This document shows positions 1 to 52,619 of a DNA stretch of 64,000 nucleotides, piece after piece. Position 1 is the stretch's first letter, and every line of letters starts with the position of its first letter. Below the pieces are notes generated by a model, which did no database searches, was not told where the DNA came from, and saw nothing but the letters and a program-made list of their open reading frames with translations. The DNA is taken from IMG/VR virus record IMGVR_UViG_2593339273_000007, positions 1 through 64,000 of that record; one strand, given 5' to 3'. Position numbers and translations under genes: made by a program. The stretch comes from a virus. Its lineage: Duplodnaviria > Caudoviricetes.

Positions 1-3000
1 TTATCTAACCTCCTCTTTACACTCTATCTTTCTGTCTGAATTTTCATTTTGCAGACCTCCTTTCTCCATCTTTTCTTTGAAGTATCCAAGCTTGTCCATT
101 ACGGATGCTTTTTCTCTTTTATCCAGATCTCCAAAACTTTGTACTTTGCTATCTCTAAAATCTGCATCGTACCTATCTGCTACTCCGTCCAAATCCATAT
201 CTTTTGAAAGCGGATCATAGAAATTACCATCGTCATCAATTTCAAGTCCAAGTGATGCTTTTAACTTTTCTTCATCCACATATACCAGCTCATTAAAATC
301 CCAAAAACCTATGTTCGTTTTGATTTGTATAAGTTCCTTCGTATCACTTGCATTAAGTGGATCGTAAGTATACTGAAAACTGTCAATTAAAGTATTGTCT
401 ACATAAGTGTTCATCTTGTAATTAATTAAATCAAGACTTGTCTGTATCTCATGCTTTTCATCCGGTGTAGTCGTATATGCCAAACCTATATCTGTCAAGT
501 CAGGAAACATTGTATCGAAATCTTCTATACTGTGTGCTTCATCATATTCTTTATTTAGAAAATGAATCAGTTCTTCTTTCACTTCTTCCAAAAGTGGATT
601 TTTCTCCTCTTTTAAATCTCCTTTTTGTCCCATATCAAGCAAATTATTTACCTCAGCAAGTCTTAACGTCTTTTCTTTTAAAAGCTCTGCCTGTGGAAAT
701 TTCTTTTTTATTTCAAGCTTCGCCGTTTCAAGTTGATTCTCGATATCTTTAAGTTTTCCAAGTGTCTGTTCCAATCTCTCAGGCATCCTATCAAGTACAT
801 TATCCATTCGGGTGATATTTCCGATTTCATCTGTTCCAAACTCCCCATAATGATTTTCTTCTCCATTCAGATTGAATTTATACTGATTGGAAAAGCTGTC
901 ATAATATGCGAACAAATCGAAATTTCTATATTCTCCGATTTTTACTTCCTCAGAACGAAAATCATCTAATTTTTTTATTCCCTTTATCCTGTTTATTAAG
1001 AACTCTCCGGCTTGCTTTTTATCGGTATATTTTTTCCCATTTAAAGTTAAAGATGTGAATTTTGATAGCGTTTCTTTATCTGCCATTCCCTCTGTTTCTT
1101 TTTCTTTATTATTTTCACCCATATTTTCCAAAGTAGTCTGATCATATTTTTCTAGTTTTTCCTCCCTATACGGTTCCACTTTTTCTATATCCTTTTTCAA
1201 ATTTTCTATTTTTTCTTTTAGACTTTCAATTTCTTTTGGATATACTTTTACAACCTTATCTTCCATTTTATATAGGTTGGATTTAAAATTGGACTCCAGC
1301 ATTTTAAGTTTACTTACCTCAACATCAAGGTCCATTTTCTCACGAATAAGCGGATTTCCTGTAGATAAAGCTTTAATCTCCGCATAATTTAATGTAGCTT
1401 CATCAATATCCTCCGCTACTCTTACAGGTGTCTTTGAATTCATTATTTGAGATATATAAGTTTGCTTGGTTTCAAGTGTTTGGAAAAGATACGCATCAAA
1501 GGTATTTTCCGTAATATAACGAAAGATATGAACATCATCATTTTCATTACCTTGCCTTACAATTCTTCCTTTCCGCTGCTCCAAATCAGCAGGTCTCCAG
1601 GGTACGTCGAGATCATGGGTAGCAATCAATTTATTTTGAGCATTTGTTCCTGCTCCCATTTTCTGAGTAGAACCGAGAAGCACACGAATTTCACCCTTTC
1701 GTACCTTATCGAAAATCTTATCTTTTTCTTTGTTATTCTTTGCGTTATGAATAAACTCTGTTTCATTTTTAGGAATCCCCATTTTTGTCAGCTTCTCCTT
1801 TATATCATCATAAATATTAAATTCACTTGATGGTGTTGACATATCACAAAAAACTAACTGTGTGGACTTCTCATCCCTATATTTATCCCAAATACTGAAT
1901 ATATTATTTACACAGGTATTTACTTTACTGTTCGGATCATCAGGAAGTAGTGGATTAATTAACCTTTGATCAAGTGCCATTTTCTTTCCGTCATTTGTAA
2001 TCAAAAGCATATTATCGACGGAGGAATCCACTTGTTTTCCTCTAACCTTATCTGCTCTCTCAGAAAAAGTTTCAAGAATTTGCTTTTGTTCTTCTGTCGG
2101 TTTGGTTTTTATCGTTTCATAATGAGCATTTGGAACGGGAAGATTTAATACATCAGCAGTCTTTATATCCATAAACTGCTTGACCATGTTCATCAGTTCC
2201 GGAAGGTTATAAAATTTTGCAAATCTTGTCTTACTTCGATATCCGTTCCCTTCAGGATTAAGTTCAATTGCTGTAACAGTTTCTCCAAATGTAGATGCCC
2301 AAGAGTCGAAATGTTGTAGGTGCATTTTTTTAAGTTCGTCATATTGGAGATAACGCTGCATGGTATAAAGCTCTGCCATAGAATTGCTCACAGGGGTTCC
2401 TGTCGCAAATACAATCCCCTTATTACCGGTAATTTCATCCATATATCTGCATTTCATTAACATATCACTTGATTTTTGAGAGTCTGTTGTGGTAATTCCT
2501 GCTACATTTCGCATTTTTGTAAATAGGTACAAATTTTTAAACGCCTGTACCTCATCTACAAATAGCTTATCGATCCCTAATTCTTCAAAGGTTACAACAT
2601 CATCTTTTTTATAATCATCATTTAATTTCTTTAGTTTTGCCTCCAAACCTTTCTTAGTCTTTTCCAATTGTTTTACGGTAAACTTCTGGTCTCTTTCCCT
2701 TTTATACTCACTGATAAAATCCACAATTTCATCAATCTGACTTTGCAGTTCATACTCCTGTCGTTCTTTGGAGATTGGAATTCTCTCGAATTGACTATGC
2801 CCTATAATTACCGCATCATAATCACCGGTTGCAATCCTTGAGCAAAATCTTTTTCTTTTATCCGGTGTAAAGTCTTTTTCTGTTGCACATAATACATTAG
2901 CTCCTGGATACAGTTCATTAAACTCTCTACCAAATTGCTCTACGATGTGGTTAGGAACAACAAACATCGACTTGTTACTCATTCCAAGTCTTTTAGACTC

Positions 3001-6000
3001 CATAGCAATTCCTATCATTTCAAAAGTCTTACCGGCACCGACTTCATGTGCAAGTAGAGTATTTCCTCCGAAAAGCCCCCTTGCAATCGCATCTCTTTGA
3101 TGAGGTCTAAGCTCTATTTCAGGATTCATTCCGTCAAAAGTTAAATTACTTCCATCATATTCTCTAAGCCTTGTTGAATTAAACCTTTCGTTATATTCTT
3201 TGACAAGCCTTGTTCTTCTGTCTATATCATCGAAAATCCAATTTTTAAATTCTTCTTTGATGATTTCCTGTTTGCTTCTTGCAAGCATAGTTTCTTTTTG
3301 GTTTAAGACAGAACTTTTCTTTCCGTTCTCATCAATAATTTGATCGTATACATTAGTATCTCTCAGGTTCAATGTATCTTCAATCAGTTTATAGGCATTT
3401 ACCTTGCTTGTTCCGTATGTGAAATTAGCAAGGTCATTTCCTTTATCTATACTTTTACCTTCTACTCTATATTCTCCTGTAAAGTTGGTATATTTGATAT
3501 CAATATTCCATCTGTTTGAAGCAGATGTCTTTAACAGATGAAACATAAAGCTCTTATAATCTTTCTCAGGTATCCAAGTTGCTCCCATTCTAACAGTTAT
3601 TTCACTTGCCTCAAGTTCTTTTGGCATTACTTCCAATAGTTTTTGTTTTTGATAATTAAGACTGGATAGTTCTTTTTTTAGAGTAGTATTATCCTGGTTC
3701 AATAGTTCTGTATCAGTATTTGAGGCTTGTTCATTTTGCTCAAGTTCATGTTCTACATTCTTGATATACGAATCTATTACTTCTATCTTTTCTCTAATAT
3801 TCCCGGATAAATATTCATCAGCAGTTACATAAGATCTTGAAAAGTCTCCCAAATCTACAGCTGAAGAAAAAGGAGTCGTATCACTTGGATCAAATCCATC
3901 TAAATTTAAAAATATTTCTCCCTTTAATCCTTCAATAATTTCTCCCCTCGTTTTTTCAGTGAGCTTTTCCATATAGTCAAAATTGACTTTCCCTTTTTGA
4001 GAAATAGATAGGATAAGTGCTTCTGTCAAATTATCTGTATGAGTGATTGCCACAGCTTTTTTTATGGTTCTTTTTGTAAAGATATCTGATTTACCTATAA
4101 AATTCCCTTCTTTATCCAGCTTTTCCAAAGTGGAAAGTAGAGAATAGTTCGCCTCTTCACGAAACAGTTTTTTATTCGCCTTACTGTTTAAAATTCCGTG
4201 TTTCTTGGAAAACTCATCATAAAGATAATTTAACTCCCCTTGCTTCTCCTTAATTTCCGTATCGGAATAATCTTCTTTTTGATAAGCAATTACCTGTCTT
4301 AATGCTTTTTCTATTCCAAGATATGCCCTTACTTTTTCCTCATCATTTTTATTTAAATCCAATTTTTGCATTACGGAATTTTCTCTAAAATATATCTTGT
4401 CATCAATTACTGCATAAGAATAATTTTTCACACTGTCATTAGCCGGAATGGTTTCCATTTCAAATTCACTGTTTAATTCTACCTTCTCATATCTCCCTTT
4501 AATGTTTTTAATGGCGTTATTTAGCTGTTCTTTCAGAGTACTATTTTCATCTGCAACACAGGCTAAGGTCGTTCCAAATTTGCTTGATACTTCCTCCATA
4601 TTCCCCAGTACCATATCTGGATTATCTATATAGTATTTGTTATATGTCAGTCCTCTTTCGTCAGTGCCAAGTTTTATCCATTCTTCATCAAGTTTTACCA
4701 GTCGATCTCTCTTTTTAAGAAAAATAATATCACTTGTTACTTCTGTTCCCGCTTCGCCTTTAAAAGTGTTATTAGGAAGCCTTATTGCACCTAAAAACTC
4801 CGCTCTTTCCGAAATATATCTTCTGATATCTTCACTTTTTTTATCTAATGTTCCACTTGAGGTTATAAAGGCTACTACTCCACCGGAGCGTACTTTGTCT
4901 AAAGTTTTGGCGAAAAAATAATCGTGAATAAGAAAATTATTTTTCTCATACTCACGATCGGCTATTTTATATTCTCCAAAAGGTACATTTCCTATTGCTA
5001 TATCGAATAAATTGTTTGAAAAAGTTGTTTCTTCAAAGCCTTTTATCTGTATGTTAGCATTAGGATACATCTTACTTGCTATCCTACCACTAATACTGTC
5101 AAGTTCCACACCATAAAATTTGCTACTTTGCATACTCTCCGGAAGATTTCCTATAAATCTGCCTGTTCCAATACTGGGTTCTAAAATATTCCCACTTTCA
5201 AATCCCATATGAGATAAGGCTTGATAGATACTGTCAATCACTATCTTTGGTGTATAAAAAGCAGTAAGAGTGCTTTCTCTTGCTGCATCATACTCAGATG
5301 GTGATAAGTTTTCTTTTAAGAATTCTCTTGCATCTTTCCATTGTCCCTGTTTTTCTTCATCAAACACATCAGAAAGTCCTCCCCAGCCTACATACCTACT
5401 TAGTATATCCTGTTCTTCCTTTGTTGCATGACTATGTCGTTCTTCTATTTTCTTTAAAACCTTGATTGCTTCCATATTATTTTTCAATCTTTCTGAAGGT
5501 GGCAAAATCTCATCTTCTCTTGTTATTTTGTAATTTACCGGAGGAATGCTTCCCATATATTCATCATCAGGGGCATATCTTTCTTCCCTATTCTCTTTCC
5601 AAGAAACATAACTTTCTAATTTCTTATCAATGGTTTCTTGTCTATGCTTCGTAATTTTTAGATTATTTCCATCTCCGTCAATTTTCCCAAGTCCGTTTAG
5701 ATAATCAAAAGAAAGTTTAAATTCTCTATGGTTATTCGGATTTCGTTCACTATATACTGTAAATTCCCTATTTTGATTATCCACATTTACAATAAACTGA
5801 TTGGCAACCACAGCCCCTTTATCATTTATTACATCTAAACTATGGTGTAAAAGTTCCGACTTATCTTCTCCTAAGTTAAGGTTGGTGTCAATAACAATGA
5901 GTTTTTCATTTAGCTCTTTTCTATCAGAGAAACTTACAATCGGAATTTGATGGTTATTCTTTGATGCAGGATTTAACCATATATCATTTTTTTCTAAAAT

Positions 6001-9000
6001 ATCATTATATTGAAAAGCACTGACTGTATATTCTTCTCCCTGATAGATTACTTTTGCCCCTATATTGACAGGTACACGTTCTTTCTCGCTTGAAATTTCT
6101 TCTTTTTCCTTTAAGTTATCCTTTTCTTTTAAAATATCCATTAAAGACATTTGCTTTGTTTCAATGCTTTCTTCACTTTTTTTCTCATCCAGCTTAAACT
6201 GTTCAAGATCTTCTTTTTTTGCATAAAGATTTGCGACCGGTCTTTGAGGTGTATATGAAATTTCCGTCAGCAGTTTTTCTGTATTTGAGACAAGTTGAAT
6301 CCTACTCATTCCAAACGGATTAAAATTATTTCCTGTAATTTCATACTCTTTATTTTGAAAGAGAACGGAAAGTCCTTTTTTGTTATAATCTTCAATATCT
6401 AACAAAATAAGATCTTCCTCATTGATACTTTGTTCTTGTAGTTTCTCTGTTATAGATACAATCTCCAAATCAAGTTCTCTTTCATTCCGAAAAGGAATAA
6501 TTTCACTGCCCGTTATAAAGCCGTTTAAATAACCCTCCGGATCATCTAACTTTATTGTTTTATATGTTCTATAGTCCTGAATTTCTGAAATGATATATTC
6601 TTTGCCTTGATATCTTACATTCATTCCCTCTTGATATACAGGCTCTTTTTTTTCTTCCTGTGCTTTTGCCTTTTCAATCTGTTCGTTGACATAGCCGGTA
6701 AGCATAATATTTCTATGATTATCATCAAGCAGATAAGGAAGATTTTTAAGCATTTCTTTATAACTGTCATAGGAAACTGCTAGATTGGAAGTTAATATAT
6801 ATCCGTTATATCTTAAATGTTGCCTTAACTCCTTATTTTTCATATCCAAAATAAGCTCCGCCTCATAGCCTTCTTTTCCATAAATCTTGTCTGTTATATG
6901 TTCCGGTGCTTTTAATTTCTCTTCAGATATACTGATTTCATCTAAGATAAATTCTTCGCTTTGTGGATGAAACTGATATTCGCCGACCTCCTTTACATCT
7001 TTAAAAATAAGAGTTGATAAGACTTCTTTCTTATCTCTAATTTCAAGCACCTTTGCTTTTTCTTCTTCCGGTAGATTTACATTAAAATGTATTTCATTTT
7101 CTCTATTGATATATGCAATGTTTTGATTAGCACCATCTATTTTTAAATTTCTGTTATATACATAAATGTCATTATAGTAATCAGGAAACTGTTCATTAAA
7201 ACTTGCCACTTCAAAATCGTATCCTGCTTTTTCTTCCGTTACCCTATCTGATGAAATTTCATAAAGTCCTTGATTTTCAAGATAAAAAACATCATTTAAA
7301 TCGGTCAAATTAACCTCTTTCATACCTATTGCAATCTCATCGAAAAGTTTATCTATTTTTGTACTTTCTTCAAAGGTGCTTCCACGATACAAGGGATAAA
7401 TTTTGCCCTCAAAGTTATTTTCTTTCGGATAAATACGAACTCCAGTTTCTTCTAAGGATATATCCTTTACTCTATCTTTTTCTACAACAGCATAGTAATT
7501 CCCAACCTTAACGGCAATTTTATCTTCATTCGGTATCTCAGCTATATTATCTTCTAACACTACCTTTTCTGCCTTTATTTTCTCCAAAAAATAATCAATA
7601 TTGCTTGAATACAGTAAACTGTCCGCATTGTTATAGACTACCCTATATTTTCCATCATTATTTTTGAAAAAAGTCAGTCGAATTAAGTCCGAAATATTTT
7701 CATCATCTTCAAAAGGATTATATTCATCAAGCCTTAAACCATCGGCATATACAAAGTTTCTAAAATATGGAAATAACTTTATATAATCATCTTTGCTCGA
7801 TACCACTGTCATAGATTCTTTTTCTAAAATATCTTTTATGACACTATCTATACTATCTATACCGTATTCTTTATTTTCTTTTTCCTGTTCAATTTGCTCA
7901 TAAAGATACTGAAAATCTCTTTGGTTTACCTCATTTCCATCCCCGATATCCATTCTGAAGTGTTCTTCTACTTTACCATCTATAATATGATCAAAATAGA
8001 ATTTAGAATAACCTACCCACTCGTCAGTCATTTCTCCATATTCATCTTCACCTACCGTTTTGTTATGAACTCTGATTTTTTCGTCAAGCTCTTTAATTTC
8101 ATCAAGTAATTCTTTTGTAACAAGTTCTCCGGCATAATTTTTTTCTATAAGACTCAAGCCTTCATTAAATTCTACAATCCAATAATCCTTGTTATTTTGG
8201 TTTAACGATATGTTGTTCTCTACACCCGTTGCAAAAGCATTATGTTCTATTTCTGCTTGCCTTTCATAGATTTGCTCAGCTTCCTCATAAGATACTTCTC
8301 TTTCATCTTGAATCATCAGGATTTCCTGTTCTCTGTGCAAATCTTGTTTATCTTCTTTAAAGTTTTGTTCCGTATAGGTATCTTCATCGAATAGCTCTTC
8401 CTCAATTTTTGTGTTTTCTTGCTCTTTATACAAATCTTCCTGAATATATTTACCGTTTTCAATAAGATTCTCTATTCTTTTAGCCGCCTGATTCCAGTTT
8501 AGAAAAATATCATTGCAATTTTCCTTTTCAAGCTTAATTCCTTTGGCATCGTGCCACTCATTACTTTCTCTTGCTCCTGACAAAGCATGAGTCTGTCCTC
8601 CTGTTCCGTACTCGTCTTTTAAAAAATTTGCTCGTTCTTCGGTAGTATGGGCTTCCCTAAAAAAGTTATATATTCTTTCTTTTCCGCCGGATACATTGCT
8701 ACCGCTGCTTAAATATCTATCAATTTCATCTTCTGTGATAAATCCCTGTATTGCTGGTAATTCTATAAGTGTTGAGGTAAATTCTTTTCTTGACAGTTCC
8801 AAATCATCTAATCGTTTTGATATATCATCTAAATCATGATTATGAAATCTTAAAACATTTGAGTTCTCCTTATACGCCTTAAAAAACTCTATATACTCCT
8901 CTTTTAAGTTCACTCTAAACTCTTTATCTTCCAATTTTTTTGTAAGATACTCTGTTTTTTCAGGATATCCGTTTCTTTGTTTTTCATTTAGAATTGGTAA

Positions 9001-11826
9001 AAACTGATTTTTTACCTCATCACTTAGATCTCCTTTTAAAAACCACAGCTTTTCAGAAAGTTCTGCTCTTTCAAAAGAAAAGGCTTCTGCTACCTCCACA
9101 TTTGTACTGTATTTTCCATAATCAATCAATTCTCCCATGCGTATTGCTGCATCTTTCCATGGTAAAATCTGCATAGGATTTTCTCTTGAGGAAACATCAT
9201 TGGATAAATGTATTCCGTCCTTTCCATACCAAGCACAAACCTTATTTCCATTCAGCTCATATCCGTTTCCACCTTGAAATGTTTTTTGAAGAAAATCAGC
9301 CAATTCTTCCGCACTCTTACCTTTGGAATATTCTGCAAGAACTTTTAAGCGTAAATTATCCTCATTTCCTCCATGAATTAAAACAGCATCAATTTCTTCT
9401 TGCTGCATTGGTAATTCAAATCTTCCCTGAATTCCTACGTTTTGAGCAAAAGAAAAAGAAGCCTTATCGACTTCTTTAGGATTATCTTCTATATGTTCTT
9501 GTTCTAATTTCTGTGTATTTTCTTTAAAATCCTCACCTATGCCCAAACGATCTGTTCCATCGCCATTCTTGTAAGTGTCATGTCCAGATTCTTCTTCAGT
9601 CCTGCGTACTTCAGAAAATCCTGATCCTGCAACTCTTGTGTCATCTCCCAAGCTTCTTTCATTCTCAGCTCCTCTATATTTAGGAAATTCTCCACCTGTT
9701 CCTGAATGTCCAACAGATGATCCATTAAGCTTTCTTCCATCAGCATAATCTGATATTCTTCCCCTTTTTCCTCTTTGAGATATTTCAGTCTCGCTTTGCC
9801 AAATCTGTTCAGTTTGCTTAAGTTCAGTTTCTCCGGCAGTTTCATATTCGGAATTAACACTTCCGATCCATCCTCCATCTTCTCCAGTCTGTAAGTCCCT
9901 TCCTGTCTCTCGAATGGACTCTCTTTTATGATCGGTGTATATCTCTCGCCCTCCAGAGTGTATTCCTTCTTCGCCAATACTACGGTTTCTTTCATCTTCT
10001 AAGCCTCCTTCTTTTATTTCTTTTTCTATACTTTCGGTACTTCCGTTAATTTCATCTGTAAGATTATTATAACGCTCCTTAAAGCTGTTTGTCTGCTCCC
10101 TTTTTTGAATTTCCGAGATTTTTTCTCTTTCTTCCACTTTTGAAATTTCTCTGCCTATATCCATAAGTATTCTTTTCACATTGTTTGAAGTATAGGCAAG
10201 CAATCTGTCAATGTCTTGCATACTTGAAACTTTTGAGAGCAGTTCTAATTTTTCCCTATCTCCTGAAAGACGAAGTCCCATTCTCTCATATACCGAAACC
10301 TTTGCAGATTCTTCCAAAAAGTGAAGAATCTTAACTTTACTGTTTTCTTTTAAAGTTTCATCACTTAAAGAATCCAGTACTTTATTGAATATCTGCCTTA
10401 TATATAGCGAAACAAGTGTATTGATCTTATCTTCGGTAGAAAATATAAGGTTACTGTTTTTTTCTTTAAAAGTATCAATCAGGGTATCTAAGGCAGTTAT
10501 ATGCTTTTCATTATGATACTTCCATAATTTCACTTCAGAAATATTATGATTTAAACTTACTGTCTGACTTACATCAAAAATATATTTTATCCTTTCCCTT
10601 TCAATATCTAAAACGGGAATCCCCTTTTCTCCCCTACTTACATTTCTTCCGATACTCTTCCAATAGTCATATTCCGCACAGGCTGTTGCCTTTTCATTTA
10701 CTGTATATATGCTAAGTTGATTAAAATACGGATATTTATAGTTGTTTCCCACTACCTTAAGATAGGTTTCATACCTATCTATATCTTTTTTAAATTCTTC
10801 TTTTGCAAAATCAAGAATTTGTTTGACTTCATCAAATTCATATCTTGGCACTGTATCTCCCTCCTTTTTTCTTTTATTTTCATGTCTTTTTTCTTCTGCT
10901 TTATCCTTTAACAGTTCCTCTTTTCTCCAATCGTAAAATTGATTGATAGAGCTTATCGCCTTATCTGCAATATAGTGGATATAGTCGGTATTGCCTCGTC
11001 TTTTATACCATTTTTCTCTTTTCAGTCCGCTATTTTCCATAAGAGATATGGCTTTTTGTGTATCGGAGGTATAATAAATTAGTCTCCCAAGCATAAAAAA
11101 ATCAGCCTCTGATCTACTGTTAAAATATCTTTCATAATTCCCATAATATATCCTTCTTAGATCTTCTCCAGTATATGAAAAATATCCTCTGTCAAATAGC
11201 TTTTCTACTATATCCTGATCATCTTTTAAAAAAGTAGTAATCTGATTTCTTTTATTTTCATTGTTAATTACGTCTATCTTGGGCATATATTTTTCATATA
11301 AGGGTTTTAACTCACTGTCAATATTTACTACTTTGTTTCTGTCTCTGTCTTTTATGATATTACCGGTAACTGTAAAAAATCTATCCTTATCATAGATTTC
11401 AAGATTTTTGTATCTTTTTCTTATTCCCGGTACCTCTCCAATCCCTATAAAATGGAGTCCCGTTTTTGATGGAGATATTTCGGCATAGGTGGAAATTCCT
11501 CTTAAAAAATCGGCTGTCATAGACTTTGCATGATAATCCATACTATATACAAAAATATCATCACTTACCTTATCGATATCTATTCCGATATATCCGTCTC
11601 CTAAGAAAAAGCCAAGACCGTCACCAATATTTCGATTAAGTGCTGCTATGCAATCTTCATAAGAATTCCATGTTATTTTATCATTGGATTTGGCAGGTTT
11701 TCCGTTTGGCATTAAGGGTAATTTGGTGTTCTTCCCGTCTCTTTGAATGATTTTATATAGACACCAGCGTTTCTCTTTTTTAAGATTATCAGGAATGTTT
11801 TCATAATTTTTTATGAGGTCATTCAT
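1..11826 (-). CDS. Giant polyvalent protein: AEP primase-polymerase + ArdC-like ssDNA-binding domain + N6-adenine methylase + SNF2-family helicase (DarB-like)
   Basis: GIDID and [10 protein letters not shown] prim-pol motifs; NQLSIY...[18 protein letters not shown]...FDVSQT (ArdC-N); LEPSIGTG and GNVPF (methylase); [18 protein letters not shown] and [11 protein letters not shown] (SF2 helicase). Confidence 0.9.
9537..9995 (-). CDS. tnpV: TnpV-family protein nested in the +1 frame of the giant gene
   Basis: PNMKLPE...[12 protein letters not shown]...[11 protein letters not shown]...[12 protein letters not shown]...MEQIVW fits the TnpV pattern; AAGGAGG RBS 8 nt before the ATG. Confidence 0.8.
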
Positions 11827-14432: not shown

Positions 14433-15275
14433 CTAATTTTCATTCTTTATTTTTTCCACCATTTTTATTCCGCTGTCCAATACTTCTTCAAAAGTTATAT
14501 CTTTCGCATACAGATTTTTTCTCGAATAGGCTTGCCATCTTTTCAAAAAGGCTTCATTTATTTTCAATTTTTCCAGTAAGTCTATGATTTTACCTATGTC
14601 AAATTCTGTTTTTCTATAACTAAAAGTTTTTCTGCAAGCCTCTCTTAATATCTCTACATTTACATCTTTATCCTTTAATTTATAAATAATATAAAGATCG
14701 TAATAATCCTTACTTCTACTATTTAAAAATCCTCTTGCATAAATAGTTTGTATTTTTTCTGCAAGCATAGTTTCTATCGGATAAGCCTTGATTATTATTT
14801 CTTCTTCTCCAAAAGAACTCACATACTTATAATCTATCGGATGAGGTGTAATAACATCTCCTGTTGCAATGTCAAGTGGTACAATCTGTCTTATATTTTC
14901 CATTTTACATAAGATATTTGCACGAAATCCTCCATATTGATCTTCTTCTTTGATTGGCACAATGTTTTGCAATTCATAAAAGATATCGTCGGATTCTTCC
15001 GGTTTTAAAGTTTCGTTCAGCATTTGAACAATATTTTCTTCTGATAGTTGCATATTTCTCAAAAGAAAGTCTATATCTACAGTACTTCTTGAATCAATTC
15101 CAACTACACTTGATAACAAAAAGCCGCCCTTAAAAATAAATCGTTCACTATATTCGCTTCCTGCTAATTTTTTTAAAATACTTTCTAAAAAATAATATAA
15201 CATAACAGCATTAAACGAAAGACCGACTTCTTTACTAACTTTATGGCAAAGAGCCGTTAATTTAGCTTTATTCAT
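14433..15275 (-). CDS. abiEii: AbiEii type IV toxin (nucleotidyltransferase)
   Basis: FKGG...RSTVDIDF, LAEK and SRSKDYYDLY motifs; overlaps the antitoxin stop. Confidence 0.93.
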   Translation of the reverse strand: MNKAKLTALCHKVSKEVGLSFNAVMLYYFLESILKKLAGSEYSERFIFKGGFLLSSVVGIDSRSTVDIDFLLRNMQLSEENIVQMLNETLKPEESDDIFYELQNIVPIKEEDQYGGFRANILCKMENIRQIVPLDIATGDVITPHPIDYKYVSSFGEEEIIIKAYPIETMLAEKIQTIYARGFLNSRSKDYYDLYIIYKLKDKDVNVEILREACRKTFSYRKTEFDIGKIIDLLEKLKINEAFLKRWQAYSRKNLYAKDITFEEVLDSGIKMVEKIKNEN

Positions 15276-15870
15276 AAGCCACCTCCATAACCTCTCTTAC
15301 TTTATTTTCAATTCCCATTTTCATTGCAATGTCATAGAGGGAATGGATATCTCTTTCTTTATAAGAGGAATATGATTGAATAAGTTTTACATAAACCTCT
15401 ATATCCATTTCTTCTTTATGAGCAATAAAATCACAGAGTGTCCTCTCATATGAATATACCTTAACTTTATTGCCAAACATTGTAGGTTTTTGGGTTACCC
15501 CTAAGTCATAAATTGTTTTTTTTACATAATGAACATTGAAACCGTTCGGTTTTTCATTAAATTTATATCCGTTATAAACGGTTACATCGATACTCCAAGG
15601 AATTTTATCTGTTTGTCCAAGCAGGTAAAGTGCTGTTTCATAAGAAAATATCGCCTTTTTATACTGATGTTGAAAGAAATAATACTCATCGTAATCCCCA
15701 TCTTTCGTTATATAAATTCCTTTTCTTACTTTTGACAATCTCCCATCTTTCAATAGTCGACTGAGATATATCGTCGGTATATTATTTTCCTTACAGTATG
15801 CTGTTGTAATAATTCCACCTGATTGCTTCAGATATTTTTCAATTTTATTTTCATAATTCATCCCATCCAC
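15268..15870 (-). CDS. abiEi: AbiEi type IV antitoxin (wHTH); start may be a few codons downstream
   Basis: GIITT...RKGIY, FSYETAL and YSYERTLCD motifs; directly upstream of abiEii. Confidence 0.92.
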   Translation of the reverse strand: MDGMNYENKIEKYLKQSGGIITTAYCKENNIPTIYLSRLLKDGRLSKVRKGIYITKDGDYDEYYFFQHQYKKAIFSYETALYLLGQTDKIPWSIDVTVYNGYKFNEKPNGFNVHYVKKTIYDLGVTQKPTMFGNKVKVYSYERTLCDFIAHKEEMDIEVYVKLIQSYSSYKERDIHSLYDIAMKMGIENKVREVMEVAYE

Positions 15871-37699: not shown

Positions 37700-40600
37700 T
37701 TACTTTGCGTGTTTTCTTTTTCTAATACCTAACAGAATAAGTAAACTTCCTGAAGCGAACATCAACCAAGCATATAGGGATAGGTTTGCTCCATCTCCTG
37801 TTTTAGGTAAGCTATTGTTTGTACTTGTGTTTGGTACTTTCGGTTTTTCAGTATTTGGTGGTGTTGGTGGAGTTTCTTTCTCATTAGTGATAGTAAGCCC
37901 ATCTTTCATGCTTCCTCCATAGACTACCTTATACTGCTTGCCATCAAATTTAATGGCATTACCATCTTCTCCTACTTCTTTAACTGTGTATTTGTAGTAG
38001 TCTGTACTTCCAAGTCCATTTGCCACTGCAAGATTTTTGAATACTCCGCTCCAGTTATTACCTGCATTTAATTCAAGTGTTTTTCCTGTAGGATTACCAT
38101 CTTTATATAGTTCTACGGTAATTTTTTCCGTTGGAGCTGTAATGGTGTTTCCTTTATGGTCTTTCCACAGCTTTGTTACCTTGACTTCCCTAATTGGAGG
38201 TTCCATAGGTGTCCATGGTTTTTCCTTTTGATTAGTGATGGTAAAGCCGTCTTTCATGCTTCCGCTATAACTTACCTTAAACCACTTACCATCAAGTTTA
38301 ATGGAACCTGTTGTTTCTCCGATTTCCTTTACTGTATATTGGTAATAATTGGTGCTTCCAAGTCCATCTGCTACTTCAAGGTTCTTAAACTCTCCTGTCC
38401 AGTTATTATCCTTTGTTAGTTCAAGTTTCTTTCCTGTGGCTACTCCATCTTTGTATAGTTCTACTTCAACTTTTTCAACAGGAGCAGTTAAAACATTTCC
38501 ATTATCATTTTTCCATTCCTTAGTAACCTTGATAGTTCTTGTTGGTGGCTCCATTGGTGTCCATGGCGTCTTTTCTTTGTTGGTAATGGTAAAACCATCT
38601 GCCATAGTTCCGTCATAACTTACTCCGAACCACTTACCATCAAACTGAATAGCAGAACCAATTTCCCCTACTTCTTTGACAGTATATTTATAGTAGTTGG
38701 TACTTCCAAGTCCGTCTGCCACTTCAAGGTTCTTAAACTCTCCTGTCCAGTTATTATCTTTTGTCAGTTCAAGTTTCTTGCCTGTAGCGTCTCCGTCCTT
38801 ATATAGTTCTACTTCTATCTTTGTATCAGGTATATTGTTTCCTGCAAGAAGGTCCCATGCCTTTGTTACCTTGATAGTTCTTGTTGGTGGTATCATCGGT
38901 GTCCATGGCGTCTTTTCTTTGTTGGTAATGGTAAAACCATCTGCCATAGTTCCGTCATAGCTTACTCCGAACCATTTATCATTGAATTGAATAGCTGATC
39001 CAACTTCCCCTACTTCTTTAACGGTATACTTATGAATGGTAGGATTTTCTATTGACTCATAGACTTTCAGTTTTTCAAAAGTTACCGTCCAGTTATTATC
39101 CTTTGTAAGCTCTTTTATATCTCCTGTGGCAATTCCGTCTTTATATAGTTCTACTTTAATCTTATCAACAGGAGCTTCATTCAAATTACTTCCTGAAATG
39201 TCTTTCCACTCTTTAGTTACCTTAATATCTCTTGTAGGTGGTATCATCGGTGTCCAAGGGGAAAGTTTTTTGTTGGTAACTGTTAGTCCATCTTGTGTGT
39301 TGCCTCCGTAGCTAACCTTATACCAATCTCCATTAAGCTGAATGGAATTAGCTGTTTCTCCTACTTCTTTTACTGTGTAGTTATATTCATTTCCTTGTGC
39401 ATCTGTTTTATCAAGGTCGGTCCAAGTATATGTGGTTGTTCCGTTTGTTAATTCAATCGGACTCCCCTCATTTTGTCCGTTCTTTAGAAGCTGTAATTTG
39501 ATTGTCGGATGATTTCCTGTTACACCTTCCCATTCTTTGGTTACTTTTACCTCTGTTTTATCTTGTGTATTCTTAATAATCCATAAGTTGTCAGATTCCT
39601 GTTCATAGGTAGCTGCATAACCTTGCGGAACATTCTTCTCTACCACCTTATATTTAATAAGCGTACCGTCCGCTGTATACTTATCAAGTCCCGTAAAGGT
39701 GTGCTTCCAACCTTCACTTTTCTTGAGTTCATATTCTTTTATTACATCGTTGCTACCTTCAGCTCTAAGCTCTACAAGTACAGAATCTCTTTCTGCTCCT
39801 ATCCATTTCTTTTTTACAGAAACTTCTGTTTTTTCAACATTGGTATTGGTGATAACCCACTTGCCTGTTGGATCTTTTTCGTAAGAAACTTTATATCCAT
39901 TTGGAACATTTTTCTCTACTACCTTGTATTTAATAAGCGTGCCGTCCGGTGCGTATTTATCAAGTCCTGTAAAGATATGTTCCCAATTTTCATTTGCCTT
40001 AAGCTCATATTCTGCTACTACATCATTACTACCTTCGGCTTTAACCTGTACGACTACAGAATCACCTGCTGGTCCTACCCATTTCTTTTCTACAGGAATA
40101 TCTACCTTTTCATTATTGGTATTTGTTATGATAAAGCCATCTCCTATTGAACCTGAAATAGATGGAGTATACCCCTGCAAGACATCTTTTTCCTCTGCAA
40201 TGTATTTAATTTCTTCACCTGTTTTAGCATTGTATTTTCTAAGGTTTGTAAAAGTATATTCCCAATCAGGAGCAGACAGTTTATGTTCAGCAACCGGTAC
40301 TCCATCTGCTTTCAAAACAACTGTAACTTCAGAACCTACCGGTCCTATCCATTTCTTTTGGACTTTAATGTCTATTTTCTCCGGTTCGTTTGTGATTGTT
40401 TTTATCTCAAGATTATCAGATGTAACGACCACTGTATATTTCGTGTTGTCAACCAAATAATGATCCGGTGCGGCTATTTCTTCTATTTCATACTCTCCCG
40501 GAATCAATTGCATAGTAACAGCTTCTCCATTTGAATCGGTTATGACCTCAAATGTTGCTCCTGAGGCTTTTCTTGTGATTTTAAATTTAGCATTTTTTAA

Positions 40601-41662
40601 TTTAATTTCTTCATTATCTTCAGCAACTTTAACGATTTTAATCTTGCTCGTTAAATTTCCTTGTCCGCCACCGCCACTTTCTGCATCTTGAAACTGACTT
40701 TGTACAATTTTCCCTGTTTCTGTGCTTGTAAGTTCAGCTGTATTTTTTAATTTAAGTCCTTGTCTATATGTTGAACGATAATGCAGCATATAGGCTTTCC
40801 CATCAAGATTTCCCATGCTATAAGTGAAACTTCTTTTATCTGAAGATAATGTGACTTGATTACTTACATTTACAGGATTTTTTTCAACAGGTTTACCATC
40901 TTCAAAGACTATTTCATATAAAACAAACTCACCTGCCACATACTCAATGCCTTCTGGACTTCCCGGATCTTCCACTTCCAATGTATCTTTGATAATAACA
41001 TTGTTCAAATCACCTTGCTTTGCGTTTATTCGGATTCTCCATCTGACCAGACTGTCACTTGTTAATGTTTGCCCTGAAACTTTATAAAGAATCTCATTTC
41101 CATATTGTGGTGGCACATATGGTTTTAATGTAATATGCGGATTAAAAGAACCGACAGCAATTTCGTATTCACCCTCCTGCTCGACAGGATATGATGTTGT
41201 ATTCCATCTTGCTGTTAAGTGCATATCTCCAGTTATATTGAACTTATCATTGACATAGCTTGTAAAGGTTACTTTAATTTTACCGCCACCGGGTTCTTGC
41301 GGTGTAATAACAGCCCTTGCCATCAACTCCCCTGAAGGAGCATTTATATCAAAATTACAGTATGATGACTCTGGTGGAAATTTAAACTGATCCGGTAAGT
41401 CTATTTCAAAGTAATCTCCTTCGTGTAGTTCATTTCCATGACTTGAAGCATCCCACTTATAGTTCAACTTAAATAATGAGTTGGAAAAATACCCATCAGG
41501 TGGTACAACACCTTCTGAATTTGTGATACTAAAATCTGTAATGTTAACTTGAACTTCCTTGTTCTCCGCAAATACAGTTTCAATTGGTATAAACATACCT
41601 AAAAGCATAACAAAAACTAAGAAGAATGAAGTTAGCTTTTGTATGTTACCTCTTTTTTTCAT
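37700..41662 (-). CDS. LPXTG-anchored Cna-B repeat adhesin
   Basis: Signal peptide, N-terminal Ig/collagen-binding-like domains, about 8 Cna-B repeats (V.K.W...Y.V.E...ITN), LPKTG, TM and basic tail. Confidence 0.93.
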   Translation of the reverse strand: MKKRGNIQKLTSFFLVFVMLLGMFIPIETVFAENKEVQVNITDFSITNSEGVVPPDGYFSNSLFKLNYKWDASSHGNELHEGDYFEIDLPDQFKFPPESSYCNFDINAPSGELMARAVITPQEPGGGKIKVTFTSYVNDKFNITGDMHLTARWNTTSYPVEQEGEYEIAVGSFNPHITLKPYVPPQYGNEILYKVSGQTLTSDSLVRWRIRINAKQGDLNNVIIKDTLEVEDPGSPEGIEYVAGEFVLYEIVFEDGKPVEKNPVNVSNQVTLSSDKRSFTYSMGNLDGKAYMLHYRSTYRQGLKLKNTAELTSTETGKIVQSQFQDAESGGGGQGNLTSKIKIVKVAEDNEEIKLKNAKFKITRKASGATFEVITDSNGEAVTMQLIPGEYEIEEIAAPDHYLVDNTKYTVVVTSDNLEIKTITNEPEKIDIKVQKKWIGPVGSEVTVVLKADGVPVAEHKLSAPDWEYTFTNLRKYNAKTGEEIKYIAEEKDVLQGYTPSISGSIGDGFIITNTNNEKVDIPVEKKWVGPAGDSVVVQVKAEGSNDVVAEYELKANENWEHIFTGLDKYAPDGTLIKYKVVEKNVPNGYKVSYEKDPTGKWVITNTNVEKTEVSVKKKWIGAERDSVLVELRAEGSNDVIKEYELKKSEGWKHTFTGLDKYTADGTLIKYKVVEKNVPQGYAATYEQESDNLWIIKNTQDKTEVKVTKEWEGVTGNHPTIKLQLLKNGQNEGSPIELTNGTTTYTWTDLDKTDAQGNEYNYTVKEVGETANSIQLNGDWYKVSYGGNTQDGLTVTNKKLSPWTPMIPPTRDIKVTKEWKDISGSNLNEAPVDKIKVELYKDGIATGDIKELTKDNNWTVTFEKLKVYESIENPTIHKYTVKEVGEVGSAIQFNDKWFGVSYDGTMADGFTITNKEKTPWTPMIPPTRTIKVTKAWDLLAGNNIPDTKIEVELYKDGDATGKKLELTKDNNWTGEFKNLEVADGLGSTNYYKYTVKEVGEIGSAIQFDGKWFGVSYDGTMADGFTITNKEKTPWTPMEPPTRTIKVTKEWKNDNGNVLTAPVEKVEVELYKDGVATGKKLELTKDNNWTGEFKNLEVADGLGSTNYYQYTVKEIGETTGSIKLDGKWFKVSYSGSMKDGFTITNQKEKPWTPMEPPIREVKVTKLWKDHKGNTITAPTEKITVELYKDGNPTGKTLELNAGNNWSGVFKNLAVANGLGSTDYYKYTVKEVGEDGNAIKFDGKQYKVVYGGSMKDGLTITNEKETPPTPPNTEKPKVPNTSTNNSLPKTGDGANLSLYAWLMFASGSLLILLGIRKRKHAK
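37880..40390. repeat. Coding tandem repeats of Cna-B domains (about 348-bp units in the C-terminal part)
   Basis: Near-identical blocks at 38349 and 38697; PWTPMxPP linkers. Confidence 0.85.
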
Positions 41663-42983: not shown

Positions 42984-43223
42984 GATTATTAGGCTATTTT
43001 GGAAAATTAAATATCTCTGCAAAACCCATTGATTTTATCATAACTATAACATTTCTATTGTTTCAATCATATAATTTTTGATTAGGCTATTTTACATAAT
43101 ATAGAAATTATTAATCTTTTTCAGAGATTTATCGCTCGAAATATCTACCCAGCATCAACTGACATTTTTTAATTTGCATATAGTCGCAACTTTAAAATAA
43201 TAATATACTTATTTTCACTAAAC

Positions 43224-43844
43224 CTATTTTAATTTATCTGCAGCCGGATCCACTTCATACCAATGTTCTGAATTTCTTTTACACTGTAATGCAGCCACTC
43301 TTTTTGTAACTTCACGCTTTATTTTTCCATCTGAATTTAATACATCTATCCACTCTACTGGTTTATTGAAGTATTTCATTTTTCCACCACATATAGGACA
43401 TTTTTCAATATGAATTTTTTCTATTGTAATCTTCCTTCCAAGTCCACTTATCGCATAATTAAAGAATAAGGGGTGTCTAGTTTCTTTTTTTGTGATACTC
43501 CTTAACCAGAATATCAGCACCAAAACTAGCATTGTTACAGCAAAAATTACGGCATATATATTATTGTTTGTGTTAACTTGATTACTCTTGTTGGTCAATA
43601 AATTAATTACAGGTTCAAATGTTTTATACATTGGAAAAACCCCTATCAATGAAATGAAAAATCCCATCCATGAAAGTAATGCCATTGTTATAGGACTTCT
43701 CCAAACAGGATCTGGTGTATATTTCGCAATCCTATCTTCTTCATGTTCACTAAATTTGTTATTTCCTGTCACGATATTAGTAGGTCCATTAAAAACATTT
43801 CCTGAAAAATTATTAATATTTGACTTAGAATATTTATCTCCCAT
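43224..43844 (-). CDS. Two-TM protein with C-terminal Zn-ribbon (start probably MGDKY at 43844)
   Basis: AGGAGG RBS; two hydrophobic segments; CPICGG...C...H. Confidence 0.75.
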   Translation of the reverse strand: MGDKYSKSNINNFSGNVFNGPTNIVTGNNKFSEHEEDRIAKYTPDPVWRSPITMALLSWMGFFISLIGVFPMYKTFEPVINLLTNKSNQVNTNNNIYAVIFAVTMLVLVLIFWLRSITKKETRHPLFFNYAISGLGRKITIEKIHIEKCPICGGKMKYFNKPVEWIDVLNSDGKIKREVTKRVAALQCKRNSEHWYEVDPAADKLK

Positions 43845-43857
43845 ATGTATCCTCCTA

Positions 43858-44820
43858 TTATTTTCCTCTCTTCGAGCTATATTTTTTATTCTTTCTACGC
43901 ACTGTTCCATCTTCTAAAACTTCCACATTGCTGCGGGACTCCATCTCAAGTTGAACTGCTTCAAATTGCTCTTTTGATATTATTCCCTCATGGTGTTCCT
44001 TATTCAAATACTGATTCTCGGAGCCGCCGGAATCAGCAATTGCCACATCTCCTGTATACTTCTGCCTTGTTAATGTGGATTCAATTCCTTTTTTGCTCCA
44101 GCGTTCTTTTCCTTTTGGCGATTTAATACCGTTTGTTTCCAATCTCTTTATAATTCCACCTATGCTACACCCCTCCAGATACCAATTAAAAATATCTCTG
44201 ACGACTTTAGCTTGTTCGTCATCAATAACTAGCATTCCATATTTATCTTTTTTGTATCCATAGCAAGGACGATTATATAATCCTGATGTACCGTTCTCTG
44301 CTTTCCTCTTCAGCCCCCAACGTATATTTTCACTTCTCCATTCATTCTCAGACTGTTCACAAGCTTCAATCACACTTATAAGCAATTCATCGCCTATTGC
44401 TTCTGTGTCAATCTTATCTCGTTCAAAAATAATTCTTTTGCCCGCTGCACGAATCTTTCGTATGGCTTCCAGACATTCCTGTGTGTCACGTCCAAAACGA
44501 CTAATACTTTTTGTAAGTATAATATCGATATTTCCTTTTTCACATTCACTTATCATTCTATTGAATTCTATTCTTGATGTTCCTGTTTTAGCAGAAGCAA
44601 CATCTAAAAAAATATCTGCTACAAACCAAGTCCTATGAGCTACCGCCAATCTAGTGAGTCCTGATACTTGTGTAGACAAACTTTCCATTTGTTCCTTACG
44701 GTTTGTACTCACACGAGCGTAGATACCAACAGCATAATCCTTAATCACTCTACGAGGTTGTATCACTGTTATATTTTCATGAATTCTATTTAGTTCATCC
44801 ACACTCGAGTCCCCTTTCAA
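43858..44820 (-). CDS. Short large-serine-recombinase-family protein (catalytic + recombinase domain, no Zn-ribbon/coiled coil); start probably GTG 44802
   Basis: YARVST, KSISRFGR, SENIRWG, CYGY and YTGD motifs; ends at about 315-320 aa. Confidence 0.9.
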   Translation of the reverse strand: MKGDSSVDELNRIHENITVIQPRRVIKDYAVGIYARVSTNRKEQMESLSTQVSGLTRLAVAHRTWFVADIFLDVASAKTGTSRIEFNRMISECEKGNIDIILTKSISRFGRDTQECLEAIRKIRAAGKRIIFERDKIDTEAIGDELLISVIEACEQSENEWRSENIRWGLKRKAENGTSGLYNRPCYGYKKDKYGMLVIDDEQAKVVRDIFNWYLEGCSIGGIIKRLETNGIKSPKGKERWSKKGIESTLTRQKYTGDVAIADSGGSENQYLNKEHHEGIISKEQFEAVQLEMESRSNVEVLEDGTVRRKNKKYSSKRGK

Positions 44821-44893
44821 ATTTAGTATAATTAAATTGCTAATTTAGCATAATGATTATTAGTCTATTATCGTAATTCTTAATCAAAAAAAT

Positions 44894-45151
44894 TTGACAA
44901 CAGTTCTATAGTCACACACCCTAAAAACACCTCAAAAACAATAGTACCGTTGTTACACCAAGCAAAAAAAGCAGTTCTGTTGCCACACCCCTCTATTTTC
45001 CAGTGGTCAGAACTATTGTCAAATGCTCTAAAATCACAATGTAACCCCTCTGTCCAAACCTCTGCATTTTTCTCTAAACCTTTTGATTTCAAGGCTTTTA
45101 TACAACTTTTCTTCTTACTTCCTTGACAGAAGAACTATGGTCTCCACATGA
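44894..45151. repeat. 258-bp element end, copy 2; attachment junction with the prophage
   Basis: Colinear with 42726-42983; supplies HVETIVLLSRK* to the phage tail gene. Confidence 0.9.
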
Positions 45152-46128
45152 ACACTATATTTACCACCTGACCATGTATGTTTATCTTTATCAATATAGA
45201 ACTCTCCAACTAATCCTGTAAAGCTATCCTTAACCTGTACCTTGTAGCCACATTTACAATCTATATTGCCAAATCCTGAAATACTACAAGTTTTTTCAGG
45301 ACCCTTTAATTCATTTTTAATTTCATCATCAGATAAAGCCTTATCCTTTCCTTGTTCAATAACCTTAGTTATATAATGATATAATTTTTTTAGCTGTGGA
45401 TCGATTTTTTCTTTTACCTTGTTTCCTTTTTCATCAACAACCAATACCCTACTTACCATATCATTCATCGATATTTTATAGCTAGCTGATTCTATATTGC
45501 TTGACTCCTCAAACATAAGCTTCAATTTAACTATACCTTTTTCAACGACGTTAAACTTATCCAAATCAACTTCAATCATGTATTTTTTATGAGCTTTATC
45601 TTTCTTAGAATGCTCTGTATACGCACTCATTATAACATCATATCTAGTAGCACCAATAAACAGCTTTGTAATTTTAGTTTCAGCAGGTGCAAGCTTACCA
45701 TAAGCTAAAGCATGTTGACCGTCTTTTCCCTTAAACACCGCTTTTGCAATATCACAAGCTGTTGTGTTTACAAAATTATAACTTACTTGATCCTTACTCA
45801 ATAAGAAGCCTATATCAAAAGCCGTCATAGATAGACGATTATCTGTATTTGATTTATCAATATCTATTATAGTTCCTCTGAATATCTCTTTTCCACCTAC
45901 ATAAAAACAACAAGTAGAGCCTTCTACTATACCTATTTGTTGTATTTTTGAGTCATTTACTGCTTGGATAAATGAAAACTCCAAACACCTAGATGGGGAT
46001 TTAATATCCCCACTCCAGGTAACAGATGATAGTACGCTAGATAGTTTATAAAATTTACCTTGTCTAATGTGAACTATTAGTTCTATGTCTTCATTTTTAT
46101 ACTTCATTAAGGTATCACCAACTTCCAA
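45115..46128 (-). CDS. XkdQ/YqbQ-like baseplate hub protein with an ICE-derived C-terminus
   Basis: VTWSGD...R.LEFS, IFRG.I, G.FYIDKDKHTW; follows the LysM gene; last 11 aa come from the att repeat. Confidence 0.85.
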   Translation of the reverse strand: MEVGDTLMKYKNEDIELIVHIRQGKFYKLSSVLSSVTWSGDIKSPSRCLEFSFIQAVNDSKIQQIGIVEGSTCCFYVGGKEIFRGTIIDIDKSNTDNRLSMTAFDIGFLLSKDQVSYNFVNTTACDIAKAVFKGKDGQHALAYGKLAPAETKITKLFIGATRYDVIMSAYTEHSKKDKAHKKYMIEVDLDKFNVVEKGIVKLKLMFEESSNIESASYKISMNDMVSRVLVVDEKGNKVKEKIDPQLKKLYHYITKVIEQGKDKALSDDEIKNELKGPEKTCSISGFGNIDCKCGYKVQVKDSFTGLVGEFYIDKDKHTWSGGKYSVHVETIVLLSRK

Positions 46129-46787
46129 CCACTATATATTACATTAGATTTTTTTAATTGTGGGTACTTCTTTAAATTCTCTGCATTTGATGTTATCTTT
46201 TTATATTTAGAGCCATTACCGTAATATTTCTGTGCAATCATAAATAGATATTCACCATGCTTTACAGTATGTATTTTAGAGCTTTTACTTAACTCATTTT
46301 TTTCTAGGTTTCTCGAATACACTTTATTTGGAACTGTATTTGATGGATTTGAACTCTTTGAGGTGTTCGGAGGTGTCCATTCTGGAATAATGATATCTTC
46401 ATCTTCCTTTAACTCTAATGTGAAATATACATCCCCACTTCCATCTTTTTCAAGAAACTCAAAATGGCTTATTCTTACAGGTATGTTAATAGGTGTCGAT
46501 GTCACAATATATCTAAGTCTTTCCCCATCTCTACACCATTTTTCTAGCTTATTAACGTAACTATATGGGTCTGTTGTAGGTCCATCTATAAATTGATAAT
46601 TAGCACCCTCATGTGGGAAAAAACTGGATAAACTAATCGAGGAAGGCTCATATCCATTAAAGATATTTACCTTCCCTTTTTTTACTATATTTTCCCCTGA
46701 GATATCAGCATTGATATTTTTCCCTATCTCTGACGGTATAACCGGAAATCTTAAATTTTCAGTATTTGAATTTAGATATACTTCCAA
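46107..46787 (-). CDS. XkdP-like LysM tail protein
   Basis: LSSFFP and GDVYFTLELKE motifs; C-terminal LysM HTVKHGEYLFMIAQKYYG. Confidence 0.9.
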   Translation of the reverse strand: MEVYLNSNTENLRFPVIPSEIGKNINADISGENIVKKGKVNIFNGYEPSSISLSSFFPHEGANYQFIDGPTTDPYSYVNKLEKWCRDGERLRYIVTSTPINIPVRISHFEFLEKDGSGDVYFTLELKEDEDIIIPEWTPPNTSKSSNPSNTVPNKVYSRNLEKNELSKSSKIHTVKHGEYLFMIAQKYYGNGSKYKKITSNAENLKKYPQLKKSNVIYSGWKLVIP

Positions 46788-46790
46788 GTT

Positions 46791-48740: not shown

Positions 48741-48743
48741 CTA

Positions 48744-48938: not shown

Positions 48939-48943
48939 CTCAA

Positions 48944-49381: not shown

Positions 49382-49392
49382 TTTTTATCTCC

Positions 49393-49839: not shown

Positions 49840-49852
49840 ATTTAAGCACCTC

Positions 49853-52608: not shown

Positions 52609-52619
52609 CTAAATCACCC

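Follow-up and report, generated by a model that had tools for sequence, protein, structure and literature searches.

Same-strand nested genes are a known kind in bacteria and their phages. In the Rz/Rz1 pair of phage lambda, and in comS within srfAB of Bacillus subtilis, a complete gene with its own start lies in another frame of a larger gene on the same strand, and both genes are functional. It is rare in bacteria for a long, conserved same-strand overlap to show demonstrable selection on both frames, and overlaps of this sort are usually avoided by annotation pipelines. The present study concerns an overlap in positions 1 to 64,000 of the virus record IMGVR_UViG_2593339273_000007, a 64-kb stretch hereafter called the window. 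Here a gene of the TnpV family (tnpV) lies out of frame inside a giant gene of a conjugative element, which we call the host gene. It is very likely that this one stretch of DNA, read on one strand, specifies two proteins, a giant conjugative-element protein and an internally initiated TnpV. The pair represents a widespread variant of the known arrangement. Like Rz/Rz1 and comS/srfAB, tnpV is a same-strand, other-frame gene with its own start in a larger gene. The embedded genes of those systems, however, are lineage-restricted and short (comS has fewer than 50 codons), whereas tnpV belongs to a widespread Pfam family that also occurs stand-alone, and at this locus the sequence constraint falls on the embedded frame and not on that of the host. 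An embedded gene from a recognised family that also exists alone makes the ancestry of the overlap, and its direction, open to argument.

Three further systems invite comparison. In the account given in a passage of PMC3533173, ardD lies within tniA of Tn5053, and is likewise an accessory gene of a mobile element inside another mobile-element gene; ardD is antisense to its host, whereas tnpV and its host share a strand. For TnpV itself, an Xis-like accessory role in excision, alongside a large serine recombinase of the TnpX type, is only postulated in the literature: a passage of PMC3158075 gives it as a postulate that TnpV of Tn4451 acts in excision, by similarity to lambda Xis, and one of PMC11913394 places tnpV next to tet(O). 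The window TnpV resembles that of Tn4451/Tn4453 (Pfam family PF14198) in fitting the family profile, in sitting on a mobile element and in its helical C-terminal part. It differs as follows: it scores only 54-55 bits against the profile, compared with 87-157 for canonical members; it has about 45 additional N-terminal residues; and it lies out of frame inside a giant gene rather than standing alone. The host protein, in turn, resembles the polyvalent proteins of conjugative elements (Iyer et al., 2017; PMC5512222) in being a very large multidomain protein with an SNF2-type helicase, encoded in a conjugation module, and its relatives add an Eco57I-type methylase, YodL and DUF6908. The difference is that one segment of the host protein is the out-of-frame reading of another conserved gene.

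Organization of the Nested Genes

The giant host open reading frame (ORF) and the nested tnpV ORF are on the same (minus) strand, and both fall in the window:

1..11826, minus strand: giant host ORF of 3,941 amino acids, with an ATG start and its stop at window positions 1-3 (ORF listing and translation)
9537..9995, minus strand: nested tnpV-family gene, 152 codons plus stop, ATG start, in the +1 frame relative to the host (Pfam PF14198)
9538..9996, minus strand: host-frame reading of the tnpV DNA (host residues 611-763), a stop-free linker rich in G, S, R, E and D
10004..10010, minus strand: Shine-Dalgarno sequence AAGGAGG, 8 nucleotides upstream of the tnpV ATG and within the host codons for E-G-G (read directly)

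The tnpV ATG has a nucleotide offset of 1831 within the giant ORF, which puts the gene in the +1 frame and makes it overlap host residues 611-763. Reading along the minus strand, one meets AAGGAGG (10010..10004), then the 8-nucleotide spacer CTTAGAAG, then the ATG (9995..9993). An earlier note on this DNA, made by a model from the letters and a list of their ORFs, had pointed out a 152-codon +1-frame ORF with this Shine-Dalgarno sequence inside the giant ORF, and its coordinates and letters agree with ours. Two codons ahead of the ATG, the tnpV frame is closed by a TAG stop. The small gene would appear, at the sequence level, to have a translation start of its own (an ATG behind AAGGAGG-N8). 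Among same-strand, alternative-frame open stretches in the 11.8-kb gene, that of tnpV measures 153 codons and the next-longest 64; the length of the tnpV stretch exceeds chance expectation.

The assignment to the TnpV family, proposed in the earlier note from the pattern of the protein, was borne out by a hidden Markov model search. Pfam TnpV (PF14198) matched the nested ORF with an E-value of 1.4e-14 and 54.4 bits (gathering cut-off 27), residues 45-149 aligning with profile positions 7-110 of 111, and the same protein scored 55.3 bits in the whole-genome PF14198 search. No NCBIfam model matched the nested TnpV protein. AlphaFold2 predicts, from a shallow 16-row alignment, a small beta N-terminal part followed by a helical bundle, with a mean predicted local distance difference test score (pLDDT) of 91.3. 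The gene lies on a mobile element, having conjugative neighbours and near-identical copies in unrelated genera. No large serine recombinase of the TnpX type was found among the ORFs scanned around tnpV, a scan that covered part of the window's ORFs.

A weak terminator-like hairpin (9455..9477, minus strand) lies about 60 nucleotides past the tnpV stop, within the host codons of a conserved protein motif. The motif is kept at the protein level in other hosts.

Conservation of the Nested Arrangement

A scan of one genome per species yielded six relatives with TnpV identities of 79-93%: a Peptostreptococcus metagenome-assembled genome (MAG), Fusobacterium necrophorum, a Lachnospiraceae MAG, Johnsonella ignava, a Peptostreptococcaceae MAG and Tissierella praeacuta. 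All six keep an open TnpV frame, enclosed in an ORF of 3,630-4,008 codons. A metagenome scan with an alignment of 16 TnpV proteins returned 62 loci, 54 of which have an alternative-frame ORF spanning the TnpV match (2 of the 54 are partial matches). These extend down to 58% TnpV identity, and the frame offset is always the same, the host being +2 from TnpV. The eight exceptions are L052, L025, L061, L063, L066, L067, L068 and L069. Among them, L063 and L066 are on contigs with almost no long ORFs, the TnpV frame of L067 is not open, and L068 and L069 hold an N-terminal TnpV fragment only. A tblastn search of the window-subfamily TnpV against 72,556 plasmid records found nothing.

Complete overlaps were available from 59 loci; L014, whose contig was too short to supply flanks, and L027, whose start is one codon off, were set aside, and 51 unique sequences were obtained. 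No indel occurs across the 459-nucleotide overlap in any of the 51, and the flanks differ among homologues by indels in multiples of three. All 52 of the unique sequences examined have the Shine-Dalgarno core AGGAGG unchanged, even at a position that is synonymous for the host. The ATG is invariant as well, whereas positions -60 to -20 upstream of tnpV reach only about 40-70% consensus. The TnpV frame is closed 1-12 codons (20 in L046) before the conserved ATG of an MKET start, giving stop-to-stop lengths of 153-172 codons. Scanned both for openness and for a ribosome-binding site, most homologous loci thus keep the two frames open and retain the site.

Selection on the Two Frames

The distribution of substitutions distinguishes the overlap from its surroundings. 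Among seven sequences, the variable sites at host codon positions 1, 2 and 3 number 71, 39 and 23 in the overlap, compared with 135, 115 and 265 in the upstream flank and 782, 476 and 1871 in the downstream flank. The maximum in the overlap falls on the TnpV wobble position, and the register of the periodicity switches exactly at the overlap. In the 51 sequences, TnpV codon positions 1, 2 and 3 are variable at 85, 65 and 133 of 152 codons, respectively. Pairs with less than 80% nucleotide identity share 0.633 of their amino acids in the TnpV frame vs 0.429 in the host frame.

The ratio of nonsynonymous to synonymous substitution rates (dN/dS), which the earlier note had put forward as a check on both frames, separates them clearly. 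Nei-Gojobori (NG86) estimates of dN/dS are 0.09-0.32 for TnpV but 1.2-2.1 for the host reading of the same DNA; in its flanks the host gene has values of 0.09-0.23, and dS of TnpV is about that of the flanks. The low dN/dS together with the flank-like dS means that TnpV behaves as an ordinary protein-coding gene. The host amino-acid sequence across the overlap, as judged from these comparisons, appears to be unconstrained; no constraint at the amino-acid level was detected.

The host frame has no stop across the overlap. When TnpV synonymous codons were resampled with the codon usage of the giant ORF (5000 recodings for each of six sequences, the window's usage being applied to all six as an approximation for the other loci), the host frame acquired 9.2-13.5 stops on average, and for every sequence 0 of 5000 recodings left it open. 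Within-gene synonymous permutation of six sequences gave a probability of an open host frame, P(open), of 0.0032 to <0.0002. In the window copy, T is absent from all 29 wobble sites at which it would make a host stop (analytic P = 8.8e-8). The third frame contains 15-25 stops. The host frame thus shows statistical avoidance of stops, the sole constraint detected there, which is achieved by the lack of T at TnpV wobble positions preceding AA, AG or GA. The rare codons (CTG, GCG, CCG and TCG) used at the at-risk sites explain the abundance of G, E, D, R and S in the host peptide. AlphaFold2 gives a 261-residue host-frame segment a mean pLDDT of 42.5, with values below 50 over residues 27-226 (shallow 15-row alignment), so that the linker is probably disordered. 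This agrees with the atypical, disordered-looking stretch that had been described from the letters. The two constraints are separable, one acting on amino-acid sequence in the TnpV frame and the other on stop avoidance in the host frame.

Nesting in Other TnpV Lineages

PF14198 was searched in 401 genomes sampled across the window's phylum. Matches were found in 30 genomes and 30 loci were returned; 25 were examined after L090, L093, L094, L095 and L099 had been dropped as fragments, stop-containing or very weak matches. Nesting in a long ORF, with the same frame offset, was seen for 14 of the 25 (the window's own included), while the other 11 are stand-alone and have 3-10 stops in each alternative frame. 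Second and third copies in the same genomes are nested in 4 of 8 cases, which brings the total to 18 of 33. A second search, centred on Johnsonella, redrew the same genomes and is not independent; L145 (the same locus as L005) and L146 (a stop-containing fragment) were dropped from it.

The nested set includes canonical TnpVs at 87-149 bits. Fourteen hosts fetched at full length span 789-2,992 codons, and TnpV starts about 150-310 residues into them. Three of four hosts scanned for domains carry an Eco57I-type methylase and ResIII/SNF2/Helicase_C, with YodL or DUF6908. Hosts of canonical nested TnpVs begin with the same N-terminal motif region, followed by a linker, and contain a low-complexity stretch ('...GTDLHAE.GLSD...RPDE.GG.DEQHP...'), which is therefore the out-of-frame shadow of TnpV motifs. 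In this way nesting accounts for a low-complexity segment in giant conjugative-element proteins of gut and oral bacteria.

On a tree of TnpV (32 rows, 126 columns; unrooted and with long branches), the nested or stand-alone label requires only 2 changes, a number compatible with one origin. Shuffling of the labels gave a mean of 8.7 changes, and 0 of 500 shuffles were as low as 2. We consider it fairly likely that much of the TnpV family exists as an out-of-frame gene in giant methylase/SNF2 polyvalent genes, in several deep lineages (the window's phylum, Fusobacterium, and plasmids of Bacillus and Cohnella). The linker, rich in G, S, R, E, D and P, would then be no feature of the protein but a TnpV shadow constrained only against stops, the overlaps would rank with the longest and most widespread same-strand gene pairs known in bacteria, and they would probably have a single origin through read-through by the giant gene.

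When a canonical nested TnpV was used as query, plasmid copies were found in Cohnella and the Bacillus cereus group. On the Bacillus cereus plasmid NZ_CP091446.1, an unannotated TnpV-like ORF (L115, 8980-9318) lies inside a 2,373-residue 'LPD25 domain-containing protein'. Three more plasmids, from Bacillus thuringiensis, Bacillus wiedmannii and Virgibacillus, have similar matches under SNF2-type genes. The Johnsonella genome holds a second TnpV (L132, G401:C15:24797-25117), which is more canonical (73.6 bits) and is nested with the same offset in a long ORF.

Expression, Origin, and Alternative Explanations

Dual coding of the overlap is strongly supported by the comparative evidence, from which we infer that both products are translated. 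The earlier note had argued for true dual coding, and neither chance nor misassembly would account for the overlap. The frames that are open at 6 of 6 loci from genomes and at 54 of 62 from metagenomes, the dN/dS values, the stop avoidance and the invariant Shine-Dalgarno core all point the same way. In the proposed mechanism, ribosomes from the start at 11826 would pass through the tnpV DNA in a register shifted by one base. They would thereby join the N-terminal module to the methylase/helicase body by a flexible linker of about 150 residues that is free to drift. Separate ribosomes would initiate internally at the invariant AGGAGG-N8-ATG and make TnpV, the constrained and presumably folded product of 152 residues. 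TnpV synthesis would in this manner be tied to the transfer-module mRNA that carries the giant gene. The link between the poorly understood TnpV and a transfer-associated polyvalent protein offers a handle on TnpV function.

The earlier note had called TnpV overprinted on the giant gene. The direction is likely the reverse, as the constrained, well-folding frame is that of TnpV and the unconstrained, low-confidence frame is the host linker. The giant gene may have been extended or fused through a pre-existing tnpV; such read-through is the likeliest history because the TnpV frame is constrained and foldable while the host frame drifts and is predicted with low confidence. An unfused ancestral state, with an N-terminal gene, tnpV and a helicase gene side by side, was not found in the two stand-alone tnpV loci examined. 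Their neighbours are unrelated: one has an Xre helix-turn-helix gene, AAA/DUF4143 and restriction-modification genes, the other a two-component system.

Several observations weigh against two functional products from this DNA. In L052 (6001-6459), one C-to-T change at a TnpV wobble position is silent for TnpV and creates a host-frame stop that splits the giant ORF; loss of the host frame may at least be tolerated there, or the change may be an error in a contig of about threefold coverage. L025 and L061 carry single-nucleotide indels that break both frames. Part of this irregularity lies in one metagenome data set, whose very long contigs (L029, L030, L034, L049, L053, L061, L063 and L066) show shortened host ORFs, single-nucleotide indels or a near lack of long ORFs; this pattern suggests indel-rich assemblies rather than biology. 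Stop avoidance is also less evident elsewhere: within-gene permutation of canonical nested copies, a weak test, gave P(open) of 0.0003-0.74, with 4 of 13 below 0.02, and the recoding test used the window's codon usage throughout. A consensus scan found 11 promoter-like sites near tnpV vs 10.9 expected in shuffles. The predicted TnpV structure supplied no functional clue, as Foldseek against the PDB returned no match at E<=0.001 and among 48,161 chains VIA-align reached at most a Z of 5.7, on generic helical segments.

The four other explanations that we considered are all improbable. The tnpV frame might be a recently captured and untranslated relic, open through close kinship or through constraint on the host protein. 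Many loci are more than 85% identical, so that openness is partly inherited, but nesting persists to 58-68% TnpV identity and in other TnpV lineages. Variation in the TnpV frame, moreover, is far greater at position 3 than at position 1 and least at position 2, dN/dS is low there and exceeds 1 in the host frame, the start signals are invariant amid variable upstream sequence, and the predicted fold of TnpV is confident; we regard a relic as quite unlikely. We give slightly less credence to the idea that the giant ORF is really three genes, a separate N-terminal gene, tnpV and a downstream methylase/helicase gene, which appear joined by chance openness or assembly error. Some GenBank annotations are indeed split in this way, as in Fusobacterium necrophorum, where a 2,439-residue 'helicase' has an accession number adjacent to that of a TnpV record, and the L052 stop falls within the overlap. 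The host frame, however, is open in independent assemblies of genomes and metagenomes and at the 18 of 33 loci of the phylum sample, always with the same offset. Chance openness is excluded for this subfamily by the recoding and wobble-site tests, and flank indels come in multiples of three. The upstream part, furthermore, has no stop to end it, so ribosomes from 11826 must read through.

A programmed frameshift from the host frame would produce a fusion of the N-terminal module to TnpV and no free TnpV, and this seems less probable again. The two frames are adjacent on the same strand and A-rich sequence precedes the ATG. A stop in the TnpV frame shortly before the conserved ATG (within 12 codons, or 20 in L046) makes such a fusion unlikely; the invariant Shine-Dalgarno sequence at canonical spacing argues for initiation instead, and no frameshift signal was seen, although no search for one was made. 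Least probable of all is that the DNA is conserved on account of a cis-acting nucleic-acid element (an RNA structure, for instance, or a site of recombination or transfer) and not of a second protein. The terminator-like hairpin after the tnpV stop (9477..9455) could be taken as a hint of one, but terminator-like hairpins near tnpV are at chance level in a consensus scan (2 found vs 1.3 expected; no search for RNA families was made), and a cis element would not account for three-base substitution periodicity, low dN/dS in one frame only and a match to a Pfam protein family. Translation of the DNA into both the giant protein and TnpV is the explanation that we prefer.

Annotation and Literature

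The overlap had been expected to be invisible to standard annotation. This turned out not to hold, as NCBI 'TnpV protein' records of the window subfamily exist for Fusobacterium, Filifactor, Helcococcus, Tissierella, Staphylococcus pseudintermedius and several Streptococcus species. A single 63,447-bp contig of Johnsonella ignava has records of both TnpV and the 3,711-residue host protein. The occurrence of the subfamily's element in many streptococci, Fusobacterium, Filifactor and others indicates that it is very promiscuous. Elsewhere the treatment varies. The table of the Cohnella plasmid lists TnpV alone, though a 2,086-codon ORF spans it, and that of the Bacillus cereus plasmid lists the host alone, under the LPD25 name given above. 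Records may thus give one gene, the other, both, or a shortened host, which calls for caution in reading annotations of such loci. Full-text literature searches (supplements excluded) brought up no account of a nested or overlapping TnpV. A term search in the main text of the polyvalent-protein paper, the part of PMC5512222 covered, found no TnpV, overlapping, disordered or low complexity.

The Host Protein and the Surrounding Element

The recognisable domains of the host protein lie on either side of the linker:

10609..11115, minus strand: NrS-1 polymerase HBD-like domain (NrS1-1_pol-like_HBD; residues 238-299) and a weak ArdC-N-like stretch (residues 345-406) (Pfam)
1549..3117, minus strand: ResIII/SNF2/Helicase_C helicase module (residues 2904-3426) (Pfam; NCBIfam partial matches to SNF2-type helicases)

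The protein therefore has an N-terminal primase-polymerase-like/ArdC-N-like module, the linker, a long middle part and a helicase module near the C-terminus. The match to ArdcN, an anti-restriction domain of the ssDNA-binding type, is at 17.1 bits and so below its threshold of 22.6. The NrS-1 polymerase HBD and ResIII/SNF2/Helicase_C matches are above their cut-offs, and their presence in one polypeptide of 3,941 residues makes the host a polyvalent-type protein. The earlier designation of a helicase/methylase gene holds for the helicase. For the methylase, no Pfam match to a DNA methylase domain was found in the window's giant protein at E<=0.01; the label derives from homologues, since NCBI names near-identical ones 'Adenine-specific DNA methylase, N12 class' and related hosts have Eco57I-type matches (the three of four scanned hosts of other nested TnpVs).

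The neighbours of the host gene encode a topoisomerase, AbiEii/AbiEi, a CD1107-like protein, a CHAP hydrolase, an N6/N4 methylase, a type IV secretion system coupling protein, a TrbL/VirB6-like protein, RepA_N and ParB, and genes for NikA and a MobA/VirD2 relaxase lie just outside the window. This gene content marks the neighbourhood as a conjugative element. The AbiEii toxin/AbiEi antitoxin pair (window 14433-15870, minus strand) belongs to the conjugation module, where the topoisomerase gene lies on one side of it and the CD1107-like gene on the other.

Past the 3' end of the giant gene, at L149 (G000:C21:156000-166900), two ORFs without a Pfam match precede NikA-like and MobA/VirD2 relaxase genes that run on the other strand, and a nonribosomal peptide synthetase cluster comes next. 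The presence of this cluster suggests that the element ends near it. A contractile-tailed prophage-like block (window 43000-62000), with genes for a tail sheath, a tape-measure protein, a Mu F-like protein, an SPP1-type portal and a large terminase, adjoins the conjugative element. Between the element and the prophage lies a gene for a surface adhesin-like protein of 1,320 residues (window 37700-41662, minus strand), which has eight Cna_B repeats together with collagen-binding, SpaA and Big_8 domains.

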